This document shows positions 14,192-14,779 of a stretch of 64,000 bases of DNA, piece after piece. This DNA comes from Pristiophorus japonicus (Eukaryota). The DNA lies in contig NC_091996.1 of assembly GCF_044704955.1 (NCBI RefSeq), forward strand, positions 40,052,001-40,116,000, written 5' to 3'. A program made the position numbers and the translations under genes. How positions within the stretch are numbered: the first letter of the stretch is position 1; each line of letters begins with the position of its first letter. A model generated the notes under the pieces. The model had not been told where the DNA came from. It saw only the letters and a program-made list of their open reading frames with translations, and searched no databases.

Positions 14192-14688
14192 AACATAAGA
14201 ACATAAGAAATAGGAATAGGAGTAGGCCACCTGGCCCCTCGAGCCTGCTCCGCCATTTAATAAGATCATGGCTGATCTGATCATGGACTCAGCTCCACTT
14301 CCCTGCCCGCTCCCCCTAACCCCTTATTGTTTAAGAAACTGTTTACTTCTGTCTTAAATTTATTCAATGTCCCAGCTTCCACAGTTCTCTGAGGCAGCGA
14401 ATTCCACAGATTTACAACCCTCAGAGAAGAAATTTCTCCTCATCTCTGTTTTAATTGGGCGGTCCCTTATTCTAAGATTATGCCCCCTGGTTCTCGTCTC
14501 CCCCATCAGTGGAGACATCCTCCCTGCATCCAGCTGGTCAAGCCCCCTCATAATCTTATACATTTCTATAAGATCATCTCTCATTCTTCTGAATTCCAAA
14601 AAGTAGAGGCCCAACCTACTCAACCTTTCCTCATAAGTCAACCCTCTCATCTCCGGAATCAACCTAGTGAACCTTCTCTGAACTGCCT
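14192..14688 (-). mobile_element. 5'-truncated CR1 LINE abutting the exon 13 donor
   Basis: [15 protein letters not shown]... and a (TTCTTATG)n tail at 14192-14210; same family as 44920-45410. Confidence 0.93.
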
Positions 14689-14691
14689 GAC

Positions 14692-14779
14692 CTGTGTGCC
14701 CCTGTAGTTTCTGCACGATCTCCTTGGTCTGTAGGTTCCAGATGTACACATAGTTGTCCTCAGACCCCGAAACGATCCA
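14692..14779 (-). CDS. WDR5: WDR5 exon 13, [29 protein letters not shown](D)
   Basis: 88 nt; acceptor cctttttgaag, donor gtcagg. Confidence 0.97.

Follow-up and report, generated by a model that had tools for sequence, protein, structure and literature searches.

In the last intron of WDR5, a LINE fragment begins after only three bases, in the sense orientation and in frame with the exon before it, which raises the question of whether the element gives this gene an alternative ending or is simply spliced out. We put a probability of roughly 0.84 on the second answer: the splice donor still functions, and the fragment probably rides along as a neutral passenger, removed with the intron. What is unusual about this otherwise ordinary, tolerated insertion is where it sits.

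The WDR5 locus and its LINE fragment

WDR5 lies on the minus strand of the window, the whole 64,000-nucleotide stretch analysed, which falls on contig C20 of a 5.9 Gb genome. The gene has 13 coding exons between a start codon near 37380 and a stop codon near 10415, numbered here as in the human gene. No other locus among 130 scored candidates reaches WDR5-level identity. Exon 13 (14692..14779, minus strand; 88 nt) is identified by a PDB match, by tblastn and by contigs with 0 mismatches. Residues 5–38 of the exon 13 query align with residues 272–305 of the 334-aa WDR5 chain in the PDB, the last few of these query residues being LINE-derived, and tblastn gives 96.7% with ray WDR5. The coding part of exon 14 (10415..10515, minus strand) specifies 33 residues and the stop codon. 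These residues are presumably the strands that close blade 7 of the WDR5 propeller. At the other end of the gene, the donor of the first coding exon (37303, minus strand) appears to be GC-type (AAG|GCGAGT), as placed by protein alignment alone.

Within the WDR5 gene (~26,900 bp), ORF2-like sequence extends over 8,534 bp, and there are four sense elements in 26.9 kb. Intron 12 (~14830–17430) is sense LINE sequence nearly throughout; a LINE 3' end (~15579–15176) is nested there within a longer element, which ends roughly 50 nt ahead of the exon 13 acceptor. With LINEs in both intron 12 and intron 13, exon 13 is thus flanked by LINEs on both sides. Tandem arrays with 29- and 33-bp units occur in WDR5 introns 13 and 11 (13910–14161, 11626–11853, 12204–12351 and 19005–19727), and a long block (~48000–60000) in which GC content is 70–76% and the GC skew holds at about −0.43 is probably a tandem array. 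Elsewhere in the genome, locus L003 (G000:C2, ~156,656,993–156,657,150; reverse-complement positions 1420–1575) holds an old spliced fragment of WDR5 exons 12 and 13 and no others. This fragment is ~85% identical, has both ends within ~3 nt of exon borders, and is flanked by a 12-bp direct repeat without poly(A); its source could be mRNA, circular RNA or a splicing intermediate.

The element in intron 13 is a 5'-truncated, CR1-type LINE 3' end of 497 bp (14192..14688, minus strand, sense to WDR5) that comprises the ORF2 C-terminus, the 3' UTR and an octamer tail. Its 5' end is position +4 of this last intron, as the original prediction had placed it: all 39 non-self matches, among those listed, start at query base 4 (14688), and in the 29 copies fetched the family sequence just upstream of this column differs from that at WDR5. 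The fragment diverges by 5.5% from the majority of these 29 closest copies. It aligns at 58.5% to residues 823–955 of an endonuclease and reverse transcriptase protein (P0003) that carries the Pfam domains RVT_1 and Exo_endo_phos, both of which the fragment lacks, and the best named LINE protein matches come from sharks and rays, which points to a cartilaginous fish. The tail (14192..14209, minus strand) is an octamer microsatellite of two TTCTTATG units plus TT, and the fetched copies end in the same tail; neither the fragment nor the copies have poly(A) in place of the TTCTTATG units, which is the CR1 pattern. Poly(A) is a mark of Zenon elements and the octamer tail one of CR1 (PMC4316615 and PMC13343379). 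The label CR1-type is provisional and is given here from the octamer tail and general resemblance. A 3' UTR hairpin is a further CR1 trait; a small one predicted ahead of the tail has z=0.16. Two copies (L004 and L005) have the same truncation base, which suggested a truncation hotspot; the idea was rejected, as the search had picked these two for matching TC and in the remaining copies the cut lies between 6 and more than 1,300 nt further upstream.

A proposed insertion route and the exon 13 donor

The junctions suggest how the fragment may have arrived. At the end of the tail, GTTAG spans the 3' junction (14190..14194, minus strand) and matches the GTCAG of the donor at four of five bases, with the same register on both sides (GTC|AG at the 5' junction and GTT|AG at the 3' junction). 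The motif proposed as a duplicated target or original donor is therefore present, but its score is equalled by 8 of 29 mismatched pairings and does not by itself exceed chance. Short duplications do characterize the family: among 29 real pairs, 7 have an exact match of 5 nt or more spanning the junction, compared with 27 of 812 mispaired ones. This test left out 3 of 32 copies, whose 5' ends reached or passed the limit of the fetched flank. A target-site duplication with one mismatch is plausible on this basis. GTTAG itself would be a very weak donor (U1 duplex −0.4 kcal/mol).

We infer the pre-insertion empty site from these junction sequences. If the T of GTTAG came from the tail, the earlier donor would differ from the present one only at +6; the U1 energies of the reconstructed donors are −6.9 and −7.1. 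Target-primed reverse transcription would have inserted the last ~500 nt of the element, with the LINE 5' end joining the target through a shared AG and the tail meeting the target's GT. Donor bases −3 to +5 (CAG|GTCAG) were probably kept in this way, and +6 alone was changed, from C to G. A preserved donor core would explain how an insertion so near the donor of the single WDR5 locus survived. A metagenome scan for an empty site returned five homologous loci, all from other organisms and none from a shark. The comparison proposed originally thus yielded one LINE-free site with CAG|GTCAGT (L047, in another organism) and no shark site among the five; two of the five are identical over the stretch compared and lack the upstream intron.

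The present 5' splice site reads CAG|GTCAGG (14686..14694, minus strand), in agreement with the predicted G|GTCAGG, and its bases +4 to +6 double as the first LINE bases. It matches the consensus at seven of nine positions and has a U1 duplex energy of −7.4 kcal/mol, a crude stand-in for donor strength. Across 12 WDR5 donors these energies range from −5.0 to −11.1; three of the other 11 are weaker (−7.1, −5.7 and −5.0), which puts the exon 13 donor in the weaker third, and it is the only one of the 12 with C at +3. The donor is usable, and it is used in contigs of runs X6 and X8. Three candidate cryptic donors, within the LINE or beyond it (14624, 14230 and 14168; U1 −8.0, −7.3 and −7.2), form no joint in the contigs examined.

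The position is the only feature of the insertion that exceeds chance. With four sense elements in 26.9 kb, a LINE 5' end at +3 to +6 of one of 12 donors is estimated at <1% per gene. On an approximate intron count, donor-core LINE insertions would number on the order of a hundred per genome before selection.

Transcripts across exon 13

Transcript evidence comes from contigs of 5 of 8 listed runs; all eight are contig sets, and none is recorded as RNA. Three of these (X6, X7 and X8) are from the same organism and one study, with the kind not on record and the tissue unknown; their contigs match the exons exactly and bridge the introns, and so behave as RNA of this organism. In X1 and X2, from other organisms, no contig covers the exons at 99% and 95%. 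Contigs reveal presence rather than level or RNA ends; rare forms are dropped, and the filter removes records.

Exon 12 (17488..17562, minus strand) is joined to exon 13 in X6, X7 and X8 at 14779/17488. Exon 13 is covered with 0 mismatches by contigs of X6 (401 nt) and X8 (1447 nt), which extend 253 and 255 nt, respectively, past 14692, and the first 30 letters of each extension are the start of exon 14. Normal splicing from exon 13 to exon 14 therefore occurs, with the joint present in contigs of two of the three same-organism runs. The X7 exon contig stops at 14733, inside exon 13, so this run does not show the junction. No contig in X6, X7 or X8 joins exon 13 to the LINE: in the bin 14710–14734 depth equals that of the spliced contig alone, in assemblies from which rare forms drop out.

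The expression check thus returned the spliced form, together with one X6 contig inside the LINE. This 99-nt contig corresponds to 14465–14563 with 0 mismatches and a depth of 8.0. Each of the 29 closest copies departs from it by at least seven differences, so the X6 run contains the sequence of the WDR5 copy itself; it could represent a retained intron, pre-mRNA, an excised intron or DNA. A 169-nt contig in X7 lies within intron 11 (18547–18715, 1 mismatch), which argues that intronic sequence is not special to the WDR5 LINE. Contig depths, which are not measures of level, compare as 8.0 vs 1051.6 for the X6 LINE contig and as 6.5 vs 342.6 for the X7 intron 11 contig. Because contigs drop rare forms and one X6 contig lies in the LINE, a minor retained or cleaved WDR5-LINE species may still exist. 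Literature listings turned up nothing on a WDR5-LINE isoform.

Read-through frame, competing explanations and known systems

Reading through the donor would open the predicted frame of 110 extra codons (14360..14692, minus strand), and the coordinates bear out its end at a TAA (14362–14360) inside an AATAAA (14359..14364, minus strand). The extension reads GQAVQRRF...SWDIE*, and in the DNA exon 13 is followed by GTCAGGCAG. It consists of ~89 LINE ORF2 codons and an out-of-frame tail: the loss of 2 nt near 14422 changes the reading frame, so that the last ~22 codons are not LINE ORF2 and the stop falls within AATAAA, which in the LINE's own frame encodes Asn-Lys (the TLNKFK frame). If the intron were retained or the transcript cleaved there, the change would replace the last ~33 residues, as claimed, since exon 14 encodes 33. 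The reasoning that such an mRNA would be insensitive to NMD is also sound, as its stop would have no exon junction downstream.

These features recur among the 29 copies, in fractions that lean high because the copies were chosen by similarity to the query. The hexamer stands in the same column in 27 of them; read from the same base, the frame is open for at least 85 codons in 21 and at least 100 in 17, and the first stop lies inside the same AATAAA in 8. The same 2-nt shortness near the 14422 column, just ahead of the ORF2 end, is found in 12 of the 29 (within L007–L035) and points to a source lineage that already carried the frameshift or to repeated slippage. A long frame, the AATAAA and the stop are frequent enough among copies that no locus-specific shaping is needed, and an element would be in frame with exon 13 by chance one time in three. 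The open frame, the AATAAA and the stop inside it are thus family traits, not above chance. The added frame shows no synonymous excess indicative of purifying selection over 88 codons (synonymous to nonsynonymous changes of 6:11 in the WDR5 copy vs 84:157 in the pooled others; Fisher p=1.0), in a test of low power with just 17 substitutions in the WDR5 copy. Among the 120 homologues listed (of 149), each matches either the WD40 part or the LINE part and none spans both. A fossil retrocopy of a chimeric RNA was also sought and rejected, as a search with the 30-nt junction pattern, allowing 2 mismatches at most, hit this locus only; the single copy whose match extends 4 nt more (L052) is a longer LINE of the ordinary kind. 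A public cartilaginous-fish model of a NOD1-like protein (P0016) starts with related LINE ORF2 C-terminal sequence, so such chimeric gene models do occur in annotations.

The proposal that the element acts as a regulated attenuator or creates a new isoform, with the last 33 WDR5 residues swapped for 110 LINE-derived ones, is mostly unsupported and highly improbable. The geometry permits it, the frame of the WDR5 copy is uninterrupted and the position is estimated to be rare per gene, but the family as a whole accounts for the frame length, AATAAA and stop position, synonymous changes are not in excess, no listed homologue bridges the two parts and the spliced form is present. A weaker form of the same idea is unlikely: here the LINE would cause slight retention or intronic polyadenylation, and the rare, misfolding WDR5-LINE product would be noise and not regulation. 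The locus-specific X6 contig and the C at +3 agree with such leakiness, as do the CA sites and short GTTTCTT that follow the AATAAA, the location in the last intron with no junction downstream, and precedents in PMC8501991 and PMC3192792. Against it, X7 has an intronic contig too, the gene span contains 12 sense AATAAA, and exon 13–14 contigs are continuous in both X6 and X8. That exon 13 was mis-joined to a repeat during assembly is scarcely credible: the stretch is rich in repeats, but a canonical GT donor is kept at the junction, the clean 5' truncation and tail are those of the family, and the genes keep their order along a single chromosome-scale contig.

A neutral passenger accounts for these observations as follows. 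The fragment would leave with the intron during splicing, its open frame would be left-over ORF2 that fell into line with the exon by a one-in-three chance, and its AATAAA and frameshift-derived stop are common in the family. With U1 bound ~330 nt upstream, at the donor, cleavage at the AATAAA should be suppressed, by analogy with human-cell work (PMC8501991). Any rare chimeric protein would lack the propeller-closing strands and probably be degraded. WD40 propellers commonly depend on strand closure (PMC13587420), which makes degradation likelier than a new function. The locus is then a case of a retrotransposon tolerated in the splice-donor core of a single-copy chromatin gene, probably through a donor rebuilt by microhomology, and it offers a usable presence/absence marker, not a new mechanism. 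If regulated read-through were real, a cryptic poly(A) signal present throughout the family would make WDR5 dosage tunable. It is very doubtful, though conceivable, that where U1 is limiting in some tissues or stresses, the LINE AATAAA defines a composite terminal exon and an NMD-escaping WDR5-CR1 mRNA lowers full-length WDR5. If so, sense copies near donors could serve many genes as attenuators, since this very abundant family already comes with the AATAAA and stop.

Among known systems, the fragment most resembles ordinary CR1 3' ends. CR1 copies usually lack their 5' part and end in an octamer tail (PMC4316615), and CR1-group elements make up 22–34% of shark and ray genomes (PMC13343379). 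The WDR5 fragment has the same heavy truncation, octamer tail without poly(A), abundance and ORF2 C-terminus related to endonuclease and reverse transcriptase proteins; nothing intrinsic sets it apart, only its position at intron +4. According to Zhang et al. (PMC3088655), TEs within 20 bp of exons lie mostly on the donor side, sense LINEs near exons are depleted, and TEs there occur more often in chimeric transcripts. The WDR5 element is likewise short and on the donor side, where the fixed survivors at up to 20 bp from donors concentrate, but it has the depleted sense orientation, lies inside the ~6-bp core and not beyond it, and is a shark-type CR1 in place of a mammalian L1, Alu or LTR. 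L1-driven intron retention with cryptic polyadenylation is established (PMC3192792), and PMC8501991 describes donor-proximal changes that favour intronic polyadenylation. Both follow the route originally proposed here, past the donor to an end at an intronic AATAAA. Those cases have demonstrated altered transcripts, whereas at WDR5 the spliced form is seen in contigs; PMC3192792 further invokes transcription from L1, whereas the WDR5 fragment has no 5' end, and PMC8501991 concerns weakened donors, whereas the WDR5 donor is predicted to be unchanged at −3 to +5 and is seen spliced.
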